From Escherichia coli (GTDB taxonomy: Bacteria > Pseudomonadota > Gammaproteobacteria > Enterobacterales > Enterobacteriaceae): a DNA stretch of 64,000 nucleotides. Location of the stretch: the NCBI RefSeq assembly GCF_041886205.1, contig NZ_CP169029.1; one strand, written 5' to 3'. Below the pieces are notes generated by a model, which saw nothing but the letters and a program-made list of their open reading frames with translations, was not told where the DNA came from and did not search any database. Positions 34,732-53,695 of this stretch are shown piece by piece (the first letter of the stretch is position 1; each line of letters begins with the position of its first letter). Both the position numbers and the translations under genes were made by a program.

Positions 34732-36081
34732 ATGTTAGTTAGTAAAAGCAACGAATTTAACACTAGCGCAGTTTTGGCTAGCAGGAATTATAATGAAAAC
34801 AATTCTTCCAACCCCATGGGGCTACTAGCTTATAGTATTTTAAATTTAATTTGTAAGGAAGCTGCCTCAGGGACGTACAACGGTGCTATTGAAATTTTAC
34901 AAAAAATGATGTCTGAATGTAAATATCAAGAAGGCAACGCCTTTGTCATTATGGGATCTGGAGAACAATTAAAACGTATTAAATATGATGTTGATGAAAA
35001 TAACTTAAAAGTATTCAACGTACACTTTAATAATAATGAAGAGTTAGTTACTGATGGTGAGCCTGACGTAGTATGTTTAAGCAAGCAGGAGTGGGAAAAT
35101 CTTCTCATTAAATTAAAACCGGAGATTAAAGAAAATGTGTTTTCTGAAAATAACAAATCATCGAGAGAAAATAATGTTGATCAGTATGTTCAATCCGCTA
35201 AAAGAAATGAACAGGCCCTTTTCGATAATATAATAAAAAGTGATTTTCATGTTGCTTCACTTCAGCCAGGTAGTACGCGTAGTGTTATTTCAGAAACGCC
35301 ACGAAATGTCTGTATGGAACCACGTAATTCCTATGAAACCAAAATAGATGAGATTTCATCTTTGTCAGAGTCAAAGGAACACTCCATAGATATTCAAGAA
35401 AAAACAGATGCGTTTGTGAATGAGTTCAAGGGGATATTATTTGATAAAAATGGAACGTCTTCAGAGTTTCTACTTAATTTTTATGAATGTTGCTATGAGT
35501 TTTTACCAAGAGCGCAGCCTCAGGATAAAATCGATAGCTATAATTCAGCACTGCAAGCTTTTTCCATCTTTTGTTCATCTACGTTGACACATAATAATAT
35601 AGGCTTTGATTTCAAATTATTTCCAGAAGTCAAGCTGTCTAGAGAACATCTTGAAACGGTATTCAAATACAAAAATGGCGATGATGTCCGGGAGATAGCC
35701 AAAATTAACATTACTCTCCAAAAAGAAGAGGGTGGTTTATATAATTTACGTGGATTAGATTTTAAGGGATGCTTCTTTTCTGGACAGAACTTCAGTAACT
35801 ATGATATTCAATATGTGAACTGGGGAACGTCATTGTTTGATCTTGATACTCCATGTATTTTTAATGCGCCTGCTTACAACAAGAGTAATGAAAAATCATT
35901 AGAACGCGTCAGCGAAAACGGTTTAAGTGGAGTCTTGTCTGATCGTAATAAAAAAATAAAACTCATCACGGGCGTGGCACCATTCGATGATATTTTATTT
36001 ATGGATGACGACTTTGATGATAGTTCCTCTGAGGATGATCCCGTTGAGAATAGTCCTGTTGTGACTAGTCCCCTTGTATAA
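34732..36081 (+). CDS. Hypothetical AT-rich protein (449 aa), possibly YpjC-like; acidic Ser/Asp-rich C-terminus
   Basis: Long clean ORF, low GC, Asn/Lys-rich; position equivalent to ypjC next to the ancestral ileY junction. Confidence 0.45.
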   Translation: MLVSKSNEFNTSAVLASRNYNENNSSNPMGLLAYSILNLICKEAASGTYNGAIEILQKMMSECKYQEGNAFVIMGSGEQLKRIKYDVDENNLKVFNVHFNNNEELVTDGEPDVVCLSKQEWENLLIKLKPEIKENVFSENNKSSRENNVDQYVQSAKRNEQALFDNIIKSDFHVASLQPGSTRSVISETPRNVCMEPRNSYETKIDEISSLSESKEHSIDIQEKTDAFVNEFKGILFDKNGTSSEFLLNFYECCYEFLPRAQPQDKIDSYNSALQAFSIFCSSTLTHNNIGFDFKLFPEVKLSREHLETVFKYKNGDDVREIAKINITLQKEEGGLYNLRGLDFKGCFFSGQNFSNYDIQYVNWGTSLFDLDTPCIFNAPAYNKSNEKSLERVSENGLSGVLSDRNKKIKLITGVAPFDDILFMDDDFDDSSSEDDPVENSPVVTSPLV

Positions 36082-42079: not shown

Positions 42080-44413
42080 TTATGTCGCGGTGGTTTCGTC
42101 GCACCGGGGCAGCCAGTCGGCGTTGCTTTCCTCCCTGAGCGCAAGGTTCGTCTGCATCCCCTGATTTGTTCGCCGCCTGGCGTAATTCAGCCCGTACTCT
42201 TTCAGCATCGATGACAGCCCTTTGCCGAACATGGTCAGGCTGAGGGTGTTCTTGTAGCCGTGCGCCTCCATGTAAACCAGATAGGCGTGATACAGGTACA
42301 GGCGCGGCTGTCGCGGGATGATATTCGCATTCCCCATGTACATACCGTCAGGCTCGGGCAGCGCCTCCAGATAGCCACAAAAATCGAATGTCGGGTCAGC
42401 GTCGCGCTTGATGCTGAGTGCCTCGTCGGAGTTCTGCTGCGACTGGAGCAGTGTGCGCGCGGTCATCGGGTCGCTGAACGTCTGCATAAGCTGACGCACG
42501 ATGACGGCCAGCTCGCGGGCAATTTTATCTTTCAGCTTCGGGTCACGCTCCTCCGGGGCAATCTGTTCCGGGAAGTGCATTATCACCCGGCGACGCGACA
42601 CGCCGCCGCTGCGGTCGGTGAAGCGCATCGGATTGTTGTTTACGGCCAGTATCACCGCCGGAATATGGGTGGAGTACGCATCGCGGTATTTCGGGTCAAC
42701 CGAGACCGCATCCCCGCCGGTGATGGCCTTGAGTCCTGCCCCGTCACCGCTCCATTTCTCCTGGTCAGGCAGACGTATCAGCGAGAAGCCAATCAGCGCC
42801 GCGCGCTCGCGGGGGGATTCCAGCGTTTCGATAGTCGCTGACGTGGCGTTATCTTCCCCGGCGAGCATGGTCGCTATTTCGGCCAGAATACTTTTCCCGC
42901 TGCCACCGGGACCGGTCACTTCGAGGAAGAGCTGCCAGTCGTAGCGGTTCGCCAGCACCATAAACAGCGCGGCGAGTATCACGTCACGTTTATCGGCACG
43001 CGAACCGGCGGCGCGGTCGAGCCAGCGCCAGAAATTCGGCGCGTGCGTCTCCAGCGTTTCCCCCTCCACCGGCGGGGTGAAATCCACGTCGCACAGGGTG
43101 CGCAGCCAGTGCGTTTTGCTGTGCGGGCTGAATATACCGGTACTGGTATCAAGCACGCCGTTGCGAAAGCCAATCAGCCGCCGTGGCGGGGCATCCTGCT
43201 GCGGAATAATCAGTTTCAGGGTGTCCACCACCGAGGCAATTTTCCCCGACGAAAACGGGGCGCGCAGACGCTGGAACAGCCCGGCCACGTCGCGCGCAAA
43301 GTCTGACGGCGGAATGATTTTCCATATACCGGCTTCATAGCGGGACAGGAGCTGCCCGTTCGCATCCACCGCCAGCGCTTCGCCGTAATGCTCATGCACC
43401 CGCATGGCTTTCTCACTGGTGCTCATGGCGGTAAATTCCGCCTCGCTCATGGTAGAGAAAGGGCTTTCAGCCGGTGGCCGGATGGCGTCATACATGGCTT
43501 TACGCGTGGCCTCCCCACCGTGCTGTGTATACGCATCATTCCAGTCACCGAACACCGGCGGCAGGGCGACCACGCCCTCACAGGACTCTGCGGCCGCAGA
43601 CGCTTTGGTCTGGCCGTCGCCGTTAAGGTCACGGTCGGCGGCAATGACAATCCGGCAGGCCGGGTATTTGTGACGGGCAAGGCTCGCCAGAGAAAGGAGG
43701 TTCACCGACGACAGCGCCACCATGACGGTTTCGCCGGTCAGGTGATGCACGGTGAGCGCGGTCGCGTAGCCCTCCGCTATCCACAGCCGTTTTCCCGCCT
43801 CTTTTTTCCCGTCGAGAATATGACATGTCCCTTTTACCTGCCCCCCTTTCAGGGTGCGCTTGAGACCGTCCGCGTTAATGAGCTGGACGTTAACCAGTGC
43901 GCCGCTATCGTCATACAGCGGGACAACCACATCCCCGGCACGGTACGTCACACCGCCGGTTTTGTGCATGGCCGTCAGTACCTGACATTCCCGGCCGGGA
44001 AAGCCCTTGCGGGTGAGGTAGGCGTTGCCGGTGGCCGGTTGGGTTTTCTCCATCAGTCTGGCGGCCAGCGCGGCCGCCGCTTTGCGGTCGGCCTCCGTTT
44101 CAGCGTCTGCGGCCGCAGTCACCGCCGGGGATACCGGAGGCAGGTTGCCGGTCACGGCGTTCACCTTCCCGGCCGCCTCTGACGGGGTCACGCCGAACAC
44201 TTTCTCAACCAGTTTCAGACCGTCCCCCGCGCCGCACTGGTTACAGAACCACGTCCCGCGTCCCTCCTTATCGTCAAAGCGAAAGCGGTCGGAGCCGCCA
44301 CACACCGGACAGGCCTGATGACGGTTTTTGATGACCGTTACCCCCAGCGCCGGGAGAATGCGCGGCCAGTGGCCGCACGCCTGTTTCACGGTGTCCGTTA
44401 CGTTCATTTTCAT
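42080..44413 (-). CDS. P4 alpha-type primase-helicase
   Basis: 777 aa; N-terminal zinc-binding primase region CPVCGGSDRFRFDDKEGRGTWFCNQCG; Walker A-like GPGGSGKS. Confidence 0.85.
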   Translation of the reverse strand: MKMNVTDTVKQACGHWPRILPALGVTVIKNRHQACPVCGGSDRFRFDDKEGRGTWFCNQCGAGDGLKLVEKVFGVTPSEAAGKVNAVTGNLPPVSPAVTAAADAETEADRKAAAALAARLMEKTQPATGNAYLTRKGFPGRECQVLTAMHKTGGVTYRAGDVVVPLYDDSGALVNVQLINADGLKRTLKGGQVKGTCHILDGKKEAGKRLWIAEGYATALTVHHLTGETVMVALSSVNLLSLASLARHKYPACRIVIAADRDLNGDGQTKASAAAESCEGVVALPPVFGDWNDAYTQHGGEATRKAMYDAIRPPAESPFSTMSEAEFTAMSTSEKAMRVHEHYGEALAVDANGQLLSRYEAGIWKIIPPSDFARDVAGLFQRLRAPFSSGKIASVVDTLKLIIPQQDAPPRRLIGFRNGVLDTSTGIFSPHSKTHWLRTLCDVDFTPPVEGETLETHAPNFWRWLDRAAGSRADKRDVILAALFMVLANRYDWQLFLEVTGPGGSGKSILAEIATMLAGEDNATSATIETLESPRERAALIGFSLIRLPDQEKWSGDGAGLKAITGGDAVSVDPKYRDAYSTHIPAVILAVNNNPMRFTDRSGGVSRRRVIMHFPEQIAPEERDPKLKDKIARELAVIVRQLMQTFSDPMTARTLLQSQQNSDEALSIKRDADPTFDFCGYLEALPEPDGMYMGNANIIPRQPRLYLYHAYLVYMEAHGYKNTLSLTMFGKGLSSMLKEYGLNYARRRTNQGMQTNLALREESNADWLPRCDETTAT

Positions 44414-44424
44414 GGTGTTCTCCC

Positions 44425-44745
44425 TCAGTGCAGCGCCGGTGCGGTGATATGACGGGCGCAGAGTTCATCCATCACGGCCAGCCCGAGAAAGGACAGCGAC
44501 GGCGCGGCCTTGAGTGGTCCGGCTTCCATTAAATCTTCGAGCAGGGCACAGGCAATCTGACGGCCTTTTTCCTCGCCATGCTGGCGCAGGTAGAAGCCCT
44601 CCAGCTCGGTCGCAATGGCGCTTTCCAGCGTACTGAGCGTGAGCTGCGGGTAGCGGTGCTGACGTTCGCACAGGGTCAGCCATGCACAGGCCACGGCGCG
44701 GCGATAGAGCGCGGCGCGTAAGACGGGCGTTAATGGCTTTTTCAT
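44425..44745 (-). CDS. Hypothetical protein, 106 aa (same size and position as P4 orf106)
   Basis: ORF immediately upstream of the primase, start overlapping the upstream ORF stop. Confidence 0.45.
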
Positions 44746-45047
44746 ACGTTGCGCTCCCCGGCCAGCCAGCGCTGATTGCAGCGTTCGACCACACCTTCAA
44801 GCCGGGCGGTCATGAGGTAAATCACCGAGGTGAGCTGTAGCTGCTGCGCCGGATTGTGGCGCAAAGAGGTGCAGTCCTGCACCTGCATCAGTTCGCCGAC
44901 GAGCTGGCCGACGTTGCGAAGATGTTCGAGGCATTCGAGGTCTGCCCGGCTGATGGTGGGCTGGTTTATATTCTGCGACCGTTCCGTACTGTTAACAGGC
45001 ATTATTTCGTCTCCTGAGGACGTGCGTATCCCTGCGCAGATACGCAC
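44742..45047 (-). CDS. Hypothetical P4-like small protein, 101 aa
   Basis: Translationally coupled to neighbouring ORFs in the primase-upstream cluster. Confidence 0.45.
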
Positions 45048-45073
45048 ATTTTATTTTGGGGTGTCGTTTTTAA

Positions 45074-45523
45074 TTACAGATAACGGCGGTAGCTGTTATC
45101 CGGTTTTATTTCCGTTTCCAGCCTGAAATTATTCCGCCATTTATGCGCCACCGGCGCCGGGCGTTTAACCGGGGGAATATCATCAGGATAGTTATCGATA
45201 TTCCGCGCCCGGTATTGCTGTAATGCCGGGTCGGCCGCTATTTCGCGTAATACGGCGTGGCGGTTTTCAGGGTTGCGCTTAAATACATCGGGATGCTCAC
45301 AGGTAAAGTCCCGCAAAAAACGACTGAGCGGAATTTCTGCCATACGGCCACCGGCAATAATACGAATGAGGATGGTGTAGGTGCGCCGGTAAGGGTTCCA
45401 GACCAGCCCCGGACAGCGGTACGGCATATCCCACGGAATACCGTCGGCCAGCACGCCCGACACCACCACATCAGGAAATCCTGTACAGCGATATGTTTCG
45501 CCCGGCTGAGGGAAATCAAACAT
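45074..45523 (-). CDS. Hypothetical P4-like protein, about 149 aa
   Basis: ORF 45074-45565 trimmed to ATG at 45523, which overlaps the stop of the upstream small gene. Confidence 0.4.
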   Translation of the reverse strand: MFDFPQPGETYRCTGFPDVVVSGVLADGIPWDMPYRCPGLVWNPYRRTYTILIRIIAGGRMAEIPLSRFLRDFTCEHPDVFKRNPENRHAVLREIAADPALQQYRARNIDNYPDDIPPVKRPAPVAHKWRNNFRLETEIKPDNSYRRYL

Positions 45524-45815
45524 GGTGCTCCCCTCCGTTTCCCGACGTCGTGGCGAGAAAGTCACGGCACAGGCCTTTGGCTTTCAGCTCTTCCAGGACG
45601 TAGCTGACGTCCTCATGGATATAACTAAAAATCTGCGGCAGGTATAGCTGGTGTAAACCGTTCAGCTCACGGCGCAGCAAATCTCCACCGATGAACTGCG
45701 AGACGGCGCTGGCGCGATTGAGTTTATGGTACGCCTCAATGCTGAGGTGTTCCTGCATGGGGTTAAGGTCATCACGACGCGCTGAGATGGTCTGAGGGGT
45801 GTTTTTATTATGCAT
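45516..45815 (-). CDS. Hypothetical small protein, 99 aa
   Basis: ATG at 45815 preceded by a GGAGG RBS; the N-terminal part of the longer listed ORF is low-complexity and probably not translated. Confidence 0.4.
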
Positions 45816-46403
45816 GTGACACCTCCACAACCGGCAGACGGGCGGCAAGGGAAAGCACGTATTCCCGGACAAGGGTGCGGCGGGCGGCCAGCTCGTCACC
45901 GGCCACGGTGCGGAGCATACAGATACGGGGTTTACGGTCTGCACGACGGACGGCGGCAAACACAAAGACAAACTGAGGGTGTGACGGGGTGAGGGTCGTA
46001 GCCATAAGGCAACCTCCTTCGAGTAGCAAATTATTGCTATCGCCGGAGTTCTCACGCTCAGTGGCGATAGCCCAGACGGGGGTGAGAATACCGGCCTCGA
46101 AGAATACCGGCCAGCCCGAGGGCTGCCCCGCCTGAGCTACCATTGACATGACAGCATGATATGCGATTGCGGACAGGAGACACAAAGTGACGTCTGCACG
46201 ACGATCCGCACACCACGCCATTATCTGGCGCTCTGTGGCGTTAGTTGCGACACAAAAAAAGACGCATGGCGCGTCTGGTGTCGCCTTCGAGTTACTCGGG
46301 TTCTCACGCCCGGTTACCGATTTTGCGGCAACAGCAAAACTGTACCAGGAAACACACAACGGATGCAAGCCAGAAAAAGGGGCTTTGTGAAATCGGCTCT
46401 GAT

Positions 46404-46622
46404 TCATGCGTCGTATTTCCGGTTGCGGTGCGCGACACGTTCTTCCATCCATGCCGTGATTTCAGACTGTAGCCAGGCGACATTTTTACCCCCGAGGGAA
46501 ACCTGCGCCGGGAAAGCGTTACGGGCGATTAAATCGTAGAGCGTGGAGCGGGACAGGCCGCACTGATGAATGACTTCCGGGAGACGTAAAAAACGTTCCT
46601 GAGTCGGGGCTGAAACCGGCAT
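46404..46622 (-). CDS. alpA: AlpA-family transcriptional regulator of the P4-like element
   Basis: [49 protein letters not shown] matches the AlpA HTH family; start trimmed to MPVSAP. Confidence 0.7.
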
Positions 46623-46944
46623 CGGGTGCGCGGCAGTGGGGGACGGTGGTGCTGATGAAACTGTGTGCATAACGCTACCTCGTTAATATCCGCAGAGATC
46701 CGGACGTATCCGTCCGGTATCAGGTAGCGCTCTATTTTGTGAATATTTTTCTTCAATGCAACAGAGGCATGTTGTGTCGTGGAGCAGTTTTGTCTGTTAT
46801 TTAAGCAGCGACCTGAAAATATGAAAAATAATTGGCACATGACGCGCTGAGACGTTCATAAATCACAGTCAATTGATATCGCCTATCAATAGATAAAAAT
46901 ATAATTATTAAAACAATGACTCTCTAAAAGGAGCTTGCCGAAAC

Positions 46945-47218: not shown

Positions 47219-48022
47219 ATGAAACCAGATTTGTTTACCGCAGTAATGAAAACCATCGGCAGCACGCAGGATGAGAACATCCGCACGGCCATTGACAGCG
47301 CACTGGATACCCTTAACGAGAAAGCAAACCAGAACGCAGAGGCCACGATAAATAATGCGCTTGAGGCATTCAGCAAGGCCAAATCCGCGCACACGGAAAA
47401 TATGCTGAAACTGAATGATATTGATGCGGCCATTACCCGCAGTGAGAAAGAGCGTCAGAACGCCCTGAATGAAAGTGCCGAAGCGGAACAGAACTGGCGT
47501 ACCCGTTTTCGCGAACTGCGCGGCATGATGACCCCGGAACTGAAAGCCGAACACAGTCAGCGAGTGGCCGGTCGGGAGCTGGCGGAGGAATTCACCGCCC
47601 TGATTGATGAGCTCAACGATGATAAAGCCAGTACCATGCTGGCCGCCTGTACATCAGGAGATAAGTACGTCGGCACGCATTTTACGGTGTTCTCTGCCTA
47701 CTCCCGGAATGAGTGGGCGACCGTGATGAAAGACATCCCTCCCTCACTGGTGCGCGCATTTGCGTTACGTCTGCGTGAACTCGAAATGAAAGGAGAAGAA
47801 CACCCTCACAACGTTCTCATTCAGGAACTGGGGGAGAATGTACTGGCGCAAAGCAGGTACTACACATTCAACATGGCGCAGGAGCCGGTAATTTCAAAAA
47901 TTGGGCTTCACCGTCCGGCACTCACCGGCGTGGATATGAAACTCTATAAAAGCCCGGTTCTCAGAATGGCGCGGGCTAAAGAGCTGGCACAGAAGAAAAA
48001 ATCGCGGGGGGTTAAGCCATGA
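47219..48022 (+). CDS. Possible Sid-like capsid size determination protein
   Basis: 267-aa alpha-helical protein immediately upstream of the Delta and Psu homologs, in the P4 sid-delta-psu order. Confidence 0.4.
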   Translation: MKPDLFTAVMKTIGSTQDENIRTAIDSALDTLNEKANQNAEATINNALEAFSKAKSAHTENMLKLNDIDAAITRSEKERQNALNESAEAEQNWRTRFRELRGMMTPELKAEHSQRVAGRELAEEFTALIDELNDDKASTMLAACTSGDKYVGTHFTVFSAYSRNEWATVMKDIPPSLVRAFALRLRELEMKGEEHPHNVLIQELGENVLAQSRYYTFNMAQEPVISKIGLHRPALTGVDMKLYKSPVLRMARAKELAQKKKSRGVKP

Positions 48023-48261
48023 TGCGCTGTCCGTACTGCAAACAGGCTGCCCATGTCCGTACCAGCCGTTACCTGTCGGATAACGTCAAACAGAGCTACC
48101 TCCAGTGCGTGAATGTCTTTTGCTCCGCAACCTTTCGCACCACCGAGTCTATCGACGAGGTAATACGGCCACCGGCAGAAGAAAAGCCCGAACCGCCGCA
48201 GACAGTACCAGAAACACCGCCCCGAATTCTGGACTGCGCCCGGTCATCGCTGCGCCACTGA
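48019..48261 (+). CDS. Ogr/Delta-family zinc-finger late transcription activator
   Basis: CPYCKQAAHVRTSRYLSDNVKQSYLQCVNVFCSATF matches the Ogr/Delta C-x2-C...C-x4-C pattern. Confidence 0.8.
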   Translation: MMRCPYCKQAAHVRTSRYLSDNVKQSYLQCVNVFCSATFRTTESIDEVIRPPAEEKPEPPQTVPETPPRILDCARSSLRH

Positions 48262-48277: not shown

Positions 48278-48853
48278 ATGGCACGAGCACTACTGGAACA
48301 GGCCTTTGAAACCTGTCAGAAGAATAAATCGGACTGGGTGAGCAGCAAGTCAGCACTGGCGCGGGCTGAAATGGCGCTGAAAGAGCTGGAGCTGACCTGC
48401 ACCCGTTATGAACCGGAGGCCGCACAGGCGCTGCGGGATGATATTGACCTGAAAAAATGGGCGGTAAATCAGTCGGCCGGGCAGTACATCCGGTCACATG
48501 AGGCCGTGCAGCGTATCAGTATCCGGCGTCAGCTCCACGCCTTTATGCAGGTAAGCGGCGACGCGCTGGCCGCCGCACTGGCACCGGAATTAATGCATCT
48601 CTGCGAACAACCTGACATTGTCAGAGAACGGGCTCTCGACCGGGCGGCCGCCAGTGTTCGCGAAGCGCTGTCCGTTTATGTAACCCGCGGAGGAAATATT
48701 GATTACGCAGAGGATGATCGCGACATTCTGACAACCATCGGTTTCCGGCCTGACAGAGCATCGAGAGACGACAACCGGGCAAAATATACGCCTGAACAGA
48801 GTCAGATTTTCATGCGCCGACAGGCCGCGCAGACCCGCAAAAAATCCGCATAA
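48278..48853 (+). CDS. Psu-like polarity suppression protein
   Basis: 191 aa; remembered Psu-like motifs (KKWAVNQSAGQYIRSHEAVQ, AAALAPELM, DILTTIGFRPD); position after delta. Confidence 0.6.
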   Translation: MARALLEQAFETCQKNKSDWVSSKSALARAEMALKELELTCTRYEPEAAQALRDDIDLKKWAVNQSAGQYIRSHEAVQRISIRRQLHAFMQVSGDALAAALAPELMHLCEQPDIVRERALDRAAASVREALSVYVTRGGNIDYAEDDRDILTTIGFRPDRASRDDNRAKYTPEQSQIFMRRQAAQTRKKSA

Positions 48854-51960: not shown

Positions 51961-53148
51961 TTAATGATTTACTTTATCTCCCCACCAATCCATCAACTCA
52001 ACTCTTTGAAGTAAATAAGTTGAACGGTTGTAAGCTTTTCGAACTTCATTTTTGTCTGAGTGTGCTAATGCTGCTTCAATAACATCAGAATTAAATCCGG
52101 CTTCATTGAGTGCAGTACTTGCGATGGACCGTAACCCGTGAGCAACTAATTTCCCACCATAACCAATACGCTTAAGTGCGGCATTAGCAGTCTGACTATT
52201 CATTGGTTGCTTAGGGTTATTTCTGCTGGGAAAAACATGTTCACGGTGAGCGCTGATTGGTTTCATCACTTCCAGAATATCTAACGCCTGAGGAGATAGT
52301 GGGACTATGTGCTCACGCTTAGCTTTCATCCGTTCGGCAGGAATTGTCCAGAGCTTTGCATCAAGATCGATCTCTGCCCACCGGGTACTGGAAGCCTCAG
52401 AAGGGCGCACAAGGGTCAGGAGTTGCCATTCGATTAGACAGCGAGTCGGAACAGACAGATTTGACATGACTAAAGAACGCATCAGCTTCGGCAATTCTTC
52501 TGGCCGCAACGTCGGCATGTTTTGCTTTTTGGGCTTCTCAAAGGCCATGCCAACACCGGATGCTGGATTGGCATCAATCAGACCAGTGTTTACGGCATAA
52601 ATCATGATTTCGTTAATGCGCTGCACCAGTCGACGTACAGTCTCAAGCGCCCCACGTGCTTTTATTGGCTCAAGGGCTTCAACCAAAGTTCGGGCTTTGA
52701 TTTGCTGAACGGGGATCTCACCGATGGCAGGGAATACATCTTTCTCCAGTGAACGCCAAATGTCTTTTGCGTAATCAGGGGTAACGCTTTTGCTTTTGAG
52801 ATGGAACCAGTTAGCGGCGACCGTTGAAAAAATACTGTCCAGAGCGATTTGCTGCTGTTCCTCTGCAACTTCGGCCTGAATTTGCGGGTCAATTCCGTTG
52901 GCTAACAAGGCAAGGTAATCCGCTCTTAACCCTCGGGCGTCAGCAAGTGAGAGGGCGGGGAAAGCACCTAGCCCCATCATTGTCCGCTGTTTTGTCGCCG
53001 GACGTTGATAACGGAAACGCCAGAGCTTTTTCCCGCTGGTTTTCACTATCAGGAAAAGGCCATCGCCATCATGCAGCGTTAGATCCTTCTCTAACGCTTT
53101 AGCGCGCAGAACTTCGGTGTTGGTCAGGGGGCGTGTTGTCCGTGCCAC
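51961..53148 (-). CDS. intA: P4-type tyrosine integrase, IntA (CP4-57)-like
   Basis: MARTTRPLTNTEVLRAKALEKDLTLHDGDGLFLIVKTSGKKLWRFRYQRP... resembles the IntA N-terminus; located immediately 3' of ssrA. Confidence 0.88.
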   Translation of the reverse strand: MARTTRPLTNTEVLRAKALEKDLTLHDGDGLFLIVKTSGKKLWRFRYQRPATKQRTMMGLGAFPALSLADARGLRADYLALLANGIDPQIQAEVAEEQQQIALDSIFSTVAANWFHLKSKSVTPDYAKDIWRSLEKDVFPAIGEIPVQQIKARTLVEALEPIKARGALETVRRLVQRINEIMIYAVNTGLIDANPASGVGMAFEKPKKQNMPTLRPEELPKLMRSLVMSNLSVPTRCLIEWQLLTLVRPSEASSTRWAEIDLDAKLWTIPAERMKAKREHIVPLSPQALDILEVMKPISAHREHVFPSRNNPKQPMNSQTANAALKRIGYGGKLVAHGLRSIASTALNEAGFNSDVIEAALAHSDKNEVRKAYNRSTYLLQRVELMDWWGDKVNH

Positions 53149-53332: not shown

Positions 53333-53695
53333 TGGTGGAGCTGGCGGGAGTTGAACCCGCGTCCGAAATTCCTACGTCCTCGGTACTACATGCTTAGTCA
53401 GTCTTTACATTCGCTTGCCAGCTGCGGACGGACACGCCACTAACAAACTAGCCTGATTAAGTTTTAACGCTTCAACCCCAGGCAGGGCTTCCACGCGATC
53501 TCTTTTGGGTTTGACCTCTCTTGATCCCCGTCCTAAGAGCGGAGGCTAGGGAGAGAGGGCTCTAAGCAGGTTATTAAGCTGCTAAAGCGTAGTTTTCGTC
53601 GTTTGCGACTATTTTTTGCGGCTTTTTACGAGGCCAACCGCCCCTCGGCATGCACCTTGGGTTTCGCAAATCCCGTCGAATCCAGAATCAGCCCC
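53333..53695 (-). ncRNA. ssrA: tmRNA (SsrA)
   Basis: Reverse complement reads GGGGCTGATTCTGGATTCGACGGGATTTGCGAAACCC ... GGTTCAACTCCCGCCAGCTCCACCA, matching E. coli ssrA over its length. Confidence 0.95.

Follow-up and report, generated by a model that had tools for sequence, protein, structure and literature searches.

P4-like satellites have been defined by the co-localization of int, psu, delta and sid, along with alpA, epsilon and alpha (de Sousa and Rocha, PMC8628076). The left operon of P4 itself (NC_001609, 4636-9030) carries orf88/vis, eta/kil, the cI RNA, epsilon, orf151, orf106/cnr and alpha, and the function of epsilon is to bind the repressor of the helper (P2 C-type) and inactivate it (PMC8628076). 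In the same survey, the family at the orf106 position is named cnr, and the interval between epsilon and alpha was found to hold cnr in 90% of P4-like elements and a protein of about 75 aa, missing from P4, in 61%. The kil gene of P4 has been modelled as nested within eta, as set out in PMC10111431 from the work of Forti et al. (1999) and Sabbattini et al. (1995). The immI region of phages P1 and P7 (c4, icd, ant) also has an RNA of the C4 family, which derives from the leader of the repressed operon and has its targets upstream of and at the ribosome-binding site of the Icd-like first gene, with the antirepressor Ant encoded downstream. In the isrK-orf45-anrP locus of Salmonella Gifsy-1 (PMC4825925), the IsrK RNA activates the translation of orf45/anrP, and a small upstream ORF is coupled to the next gene by AUGA.

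We analysed a window of 64,000 nucleotides from an Escherichia coli contig (NZ_CP169029.1), the whole stretch of DNA considered here, in which a chain of short genes precedes an alpha-type primase-helicase (Table 1). This region very probably forms the central part of the left (early/replication) operon in a P4-type satellite integrated beside the tmRNA gene. All seven core components of P4-like elements were present at full length and in the common order. P4-like satellites depend on a P2-type helper for their particles and have a cos site; the window contained no helper genome. The left operon shared with that of P4 its genes, their order and strand, the 8-nt kil/epsilon and epsilon/orf151 overlaps, the ATGA coupling of alpA to eta, and the fold of the immunity RNA together with its two targets, and the protein identities were 64-89%. 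The initial annotation had proposed a P4-like early/regulatory operon (epsilon, orf151, orf106) upstream of the primase, to be checked by alignment with P4; the alignment returned the same gene order and the same 8-nt overlaps, and P4 homology, order and family models agreed with one another. Differences from P4 were the integration of the element beside ssrA, which adjoins it, and the Delta protein, an Ogr/Delta protein of 80 aa in the window as against 166 aa in P4. Compared with the P4-like family as a whole (PMC8628076), nothing essential differed, the interval between epsilon and alpha holding both of the families that are frequent there. The arrangement is ordinary and has been described previously, and our analysis refines a known system and adds no new one. 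Its new details are minor, namely that the coupling into cnr is kept whatever ORF precedes it, and that the immunity allele is unlike that of P4.

Table 1. Features of the P4-type element, by position in the window.
Feature	Position	Strand	Basis
alpha-type primase-helicase, 777 aa, last operon gene	42080-44413	-	homology and domains
cnr (ORF106) homologue, 106 aa, DUF5375	44425-44745	-	homology, dN/dS, Shine-Dalgarno
86-aa gene, no P4 counterpart	44742-45002	-	PHROG, dN/dS, Shine-Dalgarno
untranslated spacer, 71 nt, with hairpin at 45022-45047	45003-45073	-	conservation
ORF151 homologue, 149 aa	45074-45523	-	PHROG, P4 identity, dN/dS
epsilon homologue, 99 aa	45516-45815	-	PF25738, P4 identity, dN/dS
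kil homologue, 65 aa, Icd-like, nested in eta	45808-46005	-	NF033153, P4 identity
eta homologue, 199 aa, long same-frame form of kil	45808-46407	-	tblastn, open frame
seqC-like target CUCGAAG (46017-46023) fused to kil Shine-Dalgarno GGAGG	46012-46023	-	exact loop complement
cI / C4-type immunity RNA, seqB-like loop CUUCGAG at 46096-46102	46060-46147	-	Rfam RF01695
inner (PLE-type) transcript leader	46255-46332	-	Rfam isrK
candidate PLE-type promoter inside eta, TTGCAT-18 nt-TACAGT	46339-46368	-	block conserved with P4
alpA (ORF88) homologue, 88 aa	46404-46670	-	PF05930, P4 identity
sid	47219-48022		P4 Sid, 28% identical (E 1e-23)
delta	48019-48261		PF04606
psu	48278-48853		PF07455, 3e-69
int	51961-53148		PF00589

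At least four short head-to-tail ORFs had been claimed upstream of the primase, and we found five, of 65, 99, 149, 86 and 106 aa. The three stop/start overlaps that had been claimed between them were all read from the sequence exactly where they had been placed. On the minus strand, ATGCATAA at 45808-45815 (ttatgcat on the plus strand) combines the stop of the 65-aa gene with the start of the 99-aa gene, ATGTTTGA at 45516-45523 (tcaaacat) the stop of the 99-aa gene with the start of the 149-aa gene, and ATGA at 44742-44745 (tcat) the stop of the 86-aa gene with the start of the 106-aa gene. Upstream, the chain goes on with another ATGA, at 46404-46407, in which the stop of alpA overlaps the start of eta. 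The junctions were compared across 62 distinct related operons, drawn from P4, one E. coli chromosome and IMG/VR contigs. The order kil-epsilon-orf151-orf106/cnr-alpha on one strand was syntenic in all 63 related loci. Of the 60 operons scored for it, 57 had a kil/epsilon overlap of 8 nt and 3 had one of 11 nt, the epsilon/orf151 overlap was kept as ATGTTTGA in 59 of 61, and the ATGA into cnr was kept in 14 of the 15 elements with the 86-aa gene. The overlap pattern exceeds chance, the junctions being found again in almost all of these 62 operons.

Protein comparison showed alpha to be 84% identical to P4 alpha, and it matched phrog_2249 (DNA primase, 8e-235) and the Pfam domains Zn_Ribbon_Prim, Toprim_3, D5_N and Pox_D5. 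Beyond alpha, the window contained foreign cargo, comprising an AIDA-type autotransporter and low-GC genes. The cnr gene lies directly upstream of alpha, 11 nt before the alpha start, and its product matched PF17345 (DUF5375; 1e-63, 212 bits, residues 1-106 on profile positions 1-106) and was 89% identical to P4 ORF106 over 106 aa. The cnr frame was open in 38 of 38 distinct sequences with a dN/dS of 0.12, and its start follows a Shine-Dalgarno GGGGAG (-7.3 kcal/mol). In P4, ORF106 (Cnr) is a negative regulator of plasmid copy number. The epsilon protein matched PF25738 ('Derepression'; 1.7e-47, 159.5 bits against a gathering threshold of 27, residues 1-99 on profile positions 1-95) and was 67% identical to P4 epsilon over its full length, and a search for solved structures related to it by sequence returned none. 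Its gene has 8-nt overlaps on both sides and a Shine-Dalgarno GGAGGTG (-10.6 kcal/mol), was open in 32 of 32 sequences (dN/dS 0.32), and starts with ATG, whereas P4 epsilon starts with GTG. By analogy with P4, this homologue would be the helper-prophage derepression protein.

The product of kil, the first translated gene past the immunity RNA, matched NF033153 (phage_ICD_like, 5e-20) and had 89% identity with the last 65 aa of the former P4 'cI ORF'. The gene had an ATG start in 61 of 61 sequences, a dN/dS of 0.18 and a Shine-Dalgarno AGGAGG of -12.4 kcal/mol. Eta, the longer ORF that shares the frame of kil, is itself a genuine gene, and this nesting is known from P4; tblastn aligned the region to P4 at 71% identity over 215 aa, and PGAP likewise calls this 199-aa gene in the E. 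coli locus closest to the window. The frame runs across the candidate inner promoter, the leader and the immunity RNA, and contained no stops, whereas the other two frames had 4.2 and 6.0 on average (probability of an open frame on shuffling, 0.007). In 56 of 59 operons, eta starts in frame at an ATGA or GTGA overlap with alpA and stays open. The start of eta had a weak Shine-Dalgarno (-3.5 kcal/mol), as a coupled start would be expected to have. The dN/dS of the eta-specific part was about 0.8 in all three frames, although RNA-level constraints overlap these codons and could mask weak selection on the protein. A frame that is open without constraint on its amino acids fits the notion that translation, and not the product, is what matters. 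The AlpA protein matched PF05930 (Phage_AlpA, 6e-19) and was 64% identical to P4 ORF88, with a dN/dS of 0.28, and alpA would, as in P4, be the first gene of the long (late) transcript.

The immunity RNA matched the full-length RF01695 model at 74.4 bits against a gathering threshold of 45 (E 3.5e-13). The leader upstream of it carries a seqA-like target CUCGAAG at 46285-46291 and, at 46260-46276, a hairpin with a U-run that is terminator-like on the minus strand. It scored 68.1 bits against the isrK model RF01394 (gathering threshold 50), and its score against c4-a1b1, 43.6 bits, was under the threshold of 46.7. Comparison of the whole cI RNA with the leader by RNAduplex produced over-extended, meaningless duplexes, and we used heptamer matches and their covariation instead. 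The heptamers of the loop, seqA and seqC covaried in four different alleles (this element, P4, L011/L009 and L064). In the window the loop and targets read CUUCGAG and CUCGAAG, as against CUGUGAA and UUCACAG in P4, a difference that predicts a different immunity specificity. A candidate promoter lies 7 nt upstream of the first base of the leader; it was missed by a consensus promoter scan, and the P4 equivalent is TTGCCT...TATAGT. By that correspondence it is probably the PLE-type inner promoter.

The RNA family, its predicted origin in the leader of the repressed operon and the position of its targets are common to the window and the immI region of P1 and P7. Downstream, the window has epsilon, orf151, cnr and alpha in place of Ant, and the nested eta and its coupling to alpA are P4 features, unlike those of immI. 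The match to the isrK model and the AUGA coupling of a small upstream ORF to the next gene likewise recall the Gifsy-1 locus, but the leader in the window is followed by a cI-type RNA and kil, and none of the genes downstream is related to anrP.

The 86-aa protein matched phrog_10110 (3e-39) and had 374 homologues of 75-87 aa, all labelled 'hypothetical', in Citrobacter, Enterobacter, Klebsiella, Salmonella, Kluyvera and Hafnia, whereas searches of Pfam, NCBIfam and PADLOC gave no match. The gene matches the family of about 75 aa that is lacking in P4 and has already been reported (PMC8628076), although the protein in the window is N-terminally longer, like its homologues in Citrobacter and Enterobacter. 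Its N-terminus was variable and its core conserved with three Cys; the dN/dS was 0.33 overall and 0.26 in the core, and the Shine-Dalgarno was AGGAG (-7.4 kcal/mol). A low-confidence AlphaFold2 model (pLDDT 64; helices at 19-45 and 51-85) predicts a two-helix hairpin. A tblastn search for a remnant of the protein in P4 gave no match, but DNA alignment showed that P4 retains just both ends of the gene, as a relic ORF of 21 codons between orf151 and cnr. Among relatives, the gene had acquired a premature stop in L009, and its ATG had become ATA in L036.

The 71-nt spacer between orf151 and the 86-aa gene is the sole sizeable untranslated gap in the chain, and its length was 71-73 nt in 15 of 15 elements with the 86-aa gene. 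It folds with a centroid energy of -17.9 kcal/mol, and the sequence of its hairpin, with a stem of 9 bp, was conserved in 30 of 31 distinct spacers, including that of P4, where record X02534 annotates it as a 'region of dyad symmetry'. The hairpin scanned as a terminator on the plus strand only, the terminator scan detecting no U-run on the operon strand. The gap is a likely end for some transcripts, which would split a short epsilon/orf151 message from the full-length one, but this role is uncertain because the T-run lies on the opposite strand. P4 makes transcripts of 1.3 and 1.7 kb that would stop at this position. Past the hairpin, 28 of 31 distinct sequences had a coupled ORF, 21-87 codons long, in the slot before cnr, which is filled by the 86-aa protein here, by relics of 21 or 24 codons in P4-type elements and by an in-frame fusion in one element. 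One possible reading, offered tentatively and with some doubt, is that the slot is kept chiefly as a conduit for translational coupling, whatever its ORF. Under such coupling, cnr (and perhaps alpha) would be translated only by ribosomes that initiate at the conserved Shine-Dalgarno and ATG past the hairpin and terminate in the ATGA at the start of cnr. The 86-aa protein, which is found in most P4-like elements, could additionally be an unrecognised partner of Cnr or alpha.

A mechanism for the operon can be proposed, all of its steps being transferred from P4 (PMC10111431, PMC8628076). The inner promoter inside eta would be constitutive, and its leader would be processed into the cI RNA, whose loop would pair with both targets on nascent transcripts, blocking the translation of kil and causing premature termination. 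In the lysogen, kil, epsilon, orf151, the 86-aa gene, cnr and alpha would thereby be silent. Once the outer late promoter is on, ribosomes would pass from alpA to eta through the ATGA and translate across the region of the RNA and terminator, and this translation of eta would suppress Rho-dependent termination (timm, within kil) and open the chain as a whole. Through tight overlaps (ATGA, 8 nt), ribosomes would then be handed from gene to gene, shielding the mRNA from Rho and fixing protein ratios. Epsilon would inactivate the repressor of the helper prophage, alpha would replicate the element and Cnr would restrain alpha.

The decaying cryptic remnant CP4-57 of E. coli K-12 illustrates another fate for such an element, and the small genes in the window might be intact merely by recency, the satellite switch being dead. 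The foreign cargo beyond alpha and the decay of the 86-aa gene in some relatives would fit this reading, as would the result that no direct repeat (att) of the tmRNA 3' end of at least 14 nt was found within the window. We nevertheless consider it unlikely that the element is a remnant: all thirteen parts from alpha to alpA are intact in the window, their start codons, Shine-Dalgarno sites and overlaps are preserved, the RNA loop still matches both targets, and none of the seven core genes is shortened.

The satellite operon, on the reading that we prefer, includes orf151 among its regular members. The product of orf151 matched phrog_10748 (3e-73, profile length 151) and was 64% identical to P4 ORF151 over its full length, and the PHROG profile lengths of 106, 151 and 95 equal the lengths of the P4 proteins. 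The frame was open in 55 of 55 sequences with a dN/dS of 0.25, and the Shine-Dalgarno was GGAGGGGAG (-10.0 kcal/mol). The family comprises just 29 cluster representatives out of 1.84 billion proteins; an exhaustive profile search of these proteins recovered that small family only, with no link to another. A moderate-confidence AlphaFold2 model (pLDDT 67) had a beta-barrel at residues 10-65, helices at 66-107 and a disordered tail; a Foldseek search of the PDB with this model gave nothing under E 0.05, just generic SH3/Tudor-like barrels (SAWADEE, CarD, PWWP). A sequence search of the PDB gave matches to eL21 that were marginal (E 0.02), and no function was assigned. Both orf151 and the 86-aa gene encode real proteins under selection.

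The kil gene is toxic in P4, and the proteins of orf151 and the 86-aa gene are both small, so that the chain, or at least these two genes, might be regarded as an accessory anti-phage or toxin-antitoxin cassette with no part in life-cycle control. P4-type satellites are known to carry defence genes (PMC9122126). This explanation is improbable. PADLOC had no match for orf151 either, and the two genes sit in the conserved core operon, outside the variable hotspot between psu and int. Moreover, in all 63 loci that were retrieved with orf151, the gene occupied the same coupled position.

The initial annotation had considered the starts uncertain, given longer ORFs that overlap in other frames, and had ended the chain at 46055. 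That uncertainty is settled for the short genes with ATG starts, and the longer ORFs are spurious, save for eta; position 46055 is merely the GTG of a mechanical ORF of 179 aa. It is hardly credible that the mechanical ORFs (179 aa from GTG 46055, 163 aa from GTG 45565 and 101 aa from GTG 45047) are true and the short chain an artefact of internal ATGs. They do exist in the sequence, the 179-aa frame was open across kil in 37 of 42 sequences, and GTG 45047 was conserved in 13 of 13. Scoring of the candidate starts, which had been suggested as a check, separated the two sets: every called ATG of the five short genes had a Shine-Dalgarno (-7.3 to -12.4 kcal/mol), whereas the GTGs at 46055, 45565 and 45047 had none (+0.4, -3.2 and -2.4 kcal/mol, against -7.4 to -10.6 at the corresponding ATGs). 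The conserved GTG 45047 belongs to the stem of the spacer hairpin, GTG 45565 was present and open in just 9 of 36 distinct sequences and GTG 46055 in 26 of 55, and alignments to the family profiles (95, 151 and 75 positions) begin at residue 1 of the short forms. Conservation had been named beforehand as the analysis on which the arrangement would stand or fall, and it upheld the arrangement, with purifying selection in the called frames (dN/dS 0.12-0.33) and values above 1, with stops, in alternative frames, including 2.1 in the extension frame over kil. Plus-strand ORFs at 44830-45126 (98 aa) and 45257-45607 (116 aa) were rejected as antisense frames with stops in relatives or a dN/dS of about 1 or more; the sole antisense frame whose dN/dS is low has wobble positions in common with the true frame and was never open.

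Finally, the module can scarcely be an ordinary temperate phage or plasmid-prophage with immunity of the P1/N15 type (c4 RNA, icd, antirepressor) and no satellite: such phages do share a C4 RNA (Rfam C4 family) and an Icd-like gene, and a 110-nt stretch of icd matches Klebsiella phages, PY54 and phiKO2 at 75-82%, but these roughly 110 nt alone are common with those phages, whereas P4 aligns over 88% of 2.5 kb, the P4 set is found in the window, namely epsilon, orf151, cnr and alpha as well as psu, delta and sid, and the interval between the integrase and the primase lacks capsid, tail and lysis genes.

The value of these results for annotation is small, in that starts are fixed for five small genes that automatic ORF lists over-extend. 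They also provide a worked example from a GC-rich region, where real overlapping genes and mechanical ORFs were cleanly told apart by conservation, Shine-Dalgarno scores and the statistics of junctions. The coupling into cnr, the open eta frame and the covarying heptamers could guide experiments on the levels of satellite replication and immunity. If the slot before cnr is indeed kept for coupling, it would be an unstudied control point for satellite copy number and, taken with the open frame of eta, would point to a general design rule for this operon in which translation itself is the signal.

Reading of 44425-46055 on both strands placed all meaningful ORFs on the minus strand and upstream of the 777-aa primase gene (42080-44413), and showed that they form a chain of five genes when ATG starts are used. 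The initial annotation had described a chain of at least four short ORFs here; the chain was real and its count was five, while its upper limit of 46055 proved to be merely the GTG of a mechanical (longest-frame) 179-aa ORF. The three stop/start overlaps listed in that annotation were exact on direct reading, with the minus-strand sequences ATGA (44742-44745), ATGTTTGA (45516-45523) and ATGCATAA (45808-45815).

Features of the satellite and its surroundings, with dN/dS in the called frame and protein identity to phage P4
Feature	Coordinates	Strand	Description	dN/dS	Identity to P4
DUF5507/DUF5508 protein	34732-36081	plus	beyond primase		
Autotransporter adhesin, 1569 aa	36888-41597	plus	AIDA/pertactin-type; beyond primase		
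alpha (primase), 777 aa	42080-44413				84%
cnr/ORF106, 106 aa	44425-44745	minus	ATG start; PF17345	0.12	89%
86-aa gene	44742-45002	minus	ATG start; PHROG family (phrog_10110)	0.33 (conserved core 0.26)	
orf151, 149 aa	45074-45523	minus	ATG start; PHROG family	0.25	64%
epsilon, 99 aa	45516-45815	minus	ATG start; PF25738	0.32	67%
kil, 65 aa	45808-46005	minus	ATG start; NF033153 Icd-like	0.18	89% (kil part)
eta, 199 aa	45808-46407	minus	alpA-coupled long form of kil		
Target CUCGAAG	46017-46023	minus	fused directly to kil Shine-Dalgarno site; exact complement of loop		
C4 antisense RNA	46060-46147	minus	family of P1 c4 and P4 cI; Rfam, 74.4 bits, threshold 45		
Loop heptamer CUUCGAG	46096-46102	minus	apical loop of C4 RNA		
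isrK-type leader	46255-46332	minus	Rfam, 68.1 bits, threshold 50		
Target CUCGAAG	46285-46291	minus	in leader; exact complement of loop		
AlpA (ORF88)	46404-46670	minus		0.28	64%
Sid homologue	47219-48022		E 1e-23		28%
Ogr/Delta zinc finger	48019-48261				
Psu	48278-48853				
Cargo gene, 526 aa	49105-50685	plus	C-terminal LA2681-like HEPN domain, 1.5e-35		
Cargo gene, 328 aa	50815-51801	minus	no Pfam match		
Tyrosine integrase	51961-53148		adjoins tmRNA gene		
tmRNA gene	53333-53695				

Family searches identified the 106-aa protein as DUF5375 over its full length (PF17345, 1e-63) and matched the 99-aa protein to the 'Derepression' family (PF25738, 2e-47) and the 65-aa protein to 'host cell division inhibitor Icd-like' (NF033153, 5e-20). 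The 149-aa and 86-aa proteins matched PHROG families of unknown function. PHROG profiles with 106, 151 and 95 positions have the lengths of P4 ORF106, ORF151 and epsilon. In a distant DNA search of a phage collection, only P4 matched over the full length, with 88% of 2.5 kb aligned at 77% identity. Its annotated genes follow the order seen here, from alpha through ORF106, ORF151, epsilon and the old 'cI ORF' to ORF88. Alignment with P4 gave protein identities of 64-89%; the 86-aa gene had no P4 match in the protein comparison. Family matches, identities and gene order thus agree with the initial reading of a P4-like early operon, and the region is the central part of the left operon of a P4-type satellite. 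A related stretch was present in 1084 of 5426 E. coli complete genomes (best 94.5% identical); at the best locus PGAP makes precisely the same five short gene calls and adds an Icd-like gene of 199 aa. The nearest homologues of the 86-aa protein were from Citrobacter (92%), which makes a Citrobacter-like enterobacterium the probable source of the window.

The true starts had been considered uncertain, as longer ORFs overlap in other frames. We compared 63 related loci from IMG/VR, retrieved with the 149-aa protein as query, together with P4 and the best E. coli locus; with all genes placed by tblastn, the chain was syntenic in every one. In codon alignments of distinct sequences, the called frames were open in 100% of sequences for every gene and had low dN/dS, and the remaining frames had dN/dS of 1.0-4.0 and contained stops. 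The lone antisense frame with low dN/dS has its wobble positions in common with the true frame and was not open in any sequence. Across kil, 37 of 42 sequences kept the 179-aa mechanical ORF open, yet the dN/dS of this frame was 2.1, and it is open through composition rather than selection. Anti-Shine-Dalgarno duplex energies were strong at the five called ATGs (-7.3 to -12.4 kcal/mol), and the GTGs 45047, 45565 and 46055 had no Shine-Dalgarno site (+0.4, -3.2 and -2.4 kcal/mol). GTGs 45565 and 46055 were inconsistently present in relatives; GTG 45047 was consistently present and belongs to a conserved hairpin stem. Together, the dN/dS values, open frames, duplex energies and presence of starts in relatives favour the called arrangement, and settle the starts for the short ATG genes. 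The conservation analysis that the initial annotation had named as its refutation test thus came out for the called genes.

The junctions were conserved across 62 distinct operons. The kil/epsilon overlap was 8 nt in 57 operons and 11 nt in three, epsilon/orf151 was ATGTTTGA in 59 of 61, the gap from orf151 to the 86-aa gene was 71-73 nt, the 86-aa gene met cnr by ATGA in 14 of 15, and the cnr-to-alpha spacing was 10-14 nt. Mosaicism between adjacent operon genes was observed in loci L004 and L009-L014 relative to the window: in L004 epsilon was 77% identical and orf151 and cnr were 98-100%, and in L009 alpA was 65% and epsilon 97% identical. Such mosaicism indicates that modules recombine frequently.

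Two families are frequent between epsilon and alpha in P4-like elements: cnr, in 90% of elements, and a small protein of 75 aa whose function is unknown, in 61% and absent from P4 (PMC8628076). The 86-aa gene is this second family, given the 75 positions of phrog_10110 and homologue lengths of 75-87 aa. In its place P4 keeps, by DNA alignment, the 71-nt spacer and hairpin, a Shine-Dalgarno site and ATG-CCT start at the upstream end, and the cnr Shine-Dalgarno site and ATGA overlap with ORF106 at the downstream end; a 21-codon relic ORF, MPYQLMQPARNAVICHREKSK (P4 locus L001, 3450-3584), fills the slot. In 28 of 31 distinct spacers an ORF of 21, 24, 52 or 85-87 codons ran from the conserved start to the ATGA on cnr, the 52 codons being left by an internal in-frame deletion in L060. 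One spacer each had the upstream start fused in frame to cnr (L015), a premature stop (L009) or ATG changed to ATA (L036). These counts argue that coupling into cnr is conserved whatever the ORF content, with the 86-aa protein under selection where present.

The spacer hairpin (45022-45047), between orf151 and the 86-aa gene, is conserved across relatives including P4, where the 1980s record annotates it as a dyad symmetry. It scans as an intrinsic terminator on the opposite (plus) strand only. A second hairpin (45079-45100), at the 3' end of orf151, likewise has a plus-strand T-run, which is antisense to the operon. The spacer hairpin may mark the end of a transcript, stabilise RNA or act as an antisense terminator. 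It lies ~1.3 kb from the presumed start site, which would fit a 1.3-kb early P4 transcript.

At the other end of the chain, 56 of 59 operons had alpA joined to the long form of kil through ATGA or GTGA, with the frame kept and uninterrupted; this junction represents P4 eta. In its account of P4 Eta, PMC10111431 describes the full-length protein as translated solely from the upstream late promoter (summarising Forti et al.) and as translationally coupled to the alpA homologue, its translation preventing termination. The 134 eta-specific codons (46006-46407) had zero stops in 45 of 45 distinct sequences, against means of 4.2 and 6.0 in the other two frames, and were open in 0.7% of shuffles. However, dN/dS was ~0.8 in all three frames and codon-position bias was absent. 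An open frame with these values would be expected if translation itself were selected, and suggests selection for the act of translation across the RNA/terminator region rather than for the eta peptide, although RNA-level constraints overlap these codons.

The C4 RNA and the leader both exceeded their Rfam thresholds, and the c4-a1b1 target element matched below threshold. Heptamers were aligned from the window, P4 and loci L009, L011 and L064. Target and loop were CUCGAAG and CUUCGAG in the window, UUCACAG and CUGUGAA in P4, CUUAUUG and CAAUAAG in L011 and L009, and AACUAUG and CAUAGUU in L064. The loop and its two targets thus covary as a triplet with four different alleles, which gives direct comparative support to the putative loop-target pairing. 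As the window allele differs from that of P4, the element is predicted to be heteroimmune to P4, with a distinct immunity specificity. A conserved TTGCAT-18 nt-TACAGT block (46339-46368), missed by a simple promoter scan, lies 7 nt upstream of the first base of the leader and is likely the inner promoter.

The orf151 family was very narrow, with 29 representatives among 1.84 billion proteins and no link to an outside family in that search. Throughout one representative, P0134, R was systematically replaced by C/W and P by F/L. Reads that are damaged or have undergone C-to-T conversion would give this pattern, so P0134 is probably an artefact of the data and no true variant. The orf151 model (pLDDT 67) was a small beta-barrel with a helical subdomain and disordered tail. 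It had no significant structural neighbour in Foldseek (best E 0.05, generic SH3/Tudor-like barrels), and sequence matches to eL21 were only marginal. The 86-aa protein was modelled, at low confidence, as a two-helix hairpin. Neither protein matched defence-system models.

P4-like satellites have been defined by seven core components (PMC8628076), and with the satellite genes tabulated here all seven are present in the window. The two cargo genes (GC 34-37%) had no match among PADLOC models. The psu-integrase interval that holds them is known as a hotspot for defence genes in P4-like satellites. The DUF5507/DUF5508 and autotransporter genes have a GC content below that of the satellite core. 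The tmRNA 3' end had no direct repeat of at least 14 nt elsewhere in the window.

Everything essential in this operon, its predicted control by a cI/C4-type RNA and eta translation and the joining of its genes by conserved stop/start overlaps, has already been described for P4 and the P4-like family. Side observations refine this known system: a possible conduit that couples translation into cnr, an eta frame held open without peptide constraint, and an immunity allele unlike that of P4.
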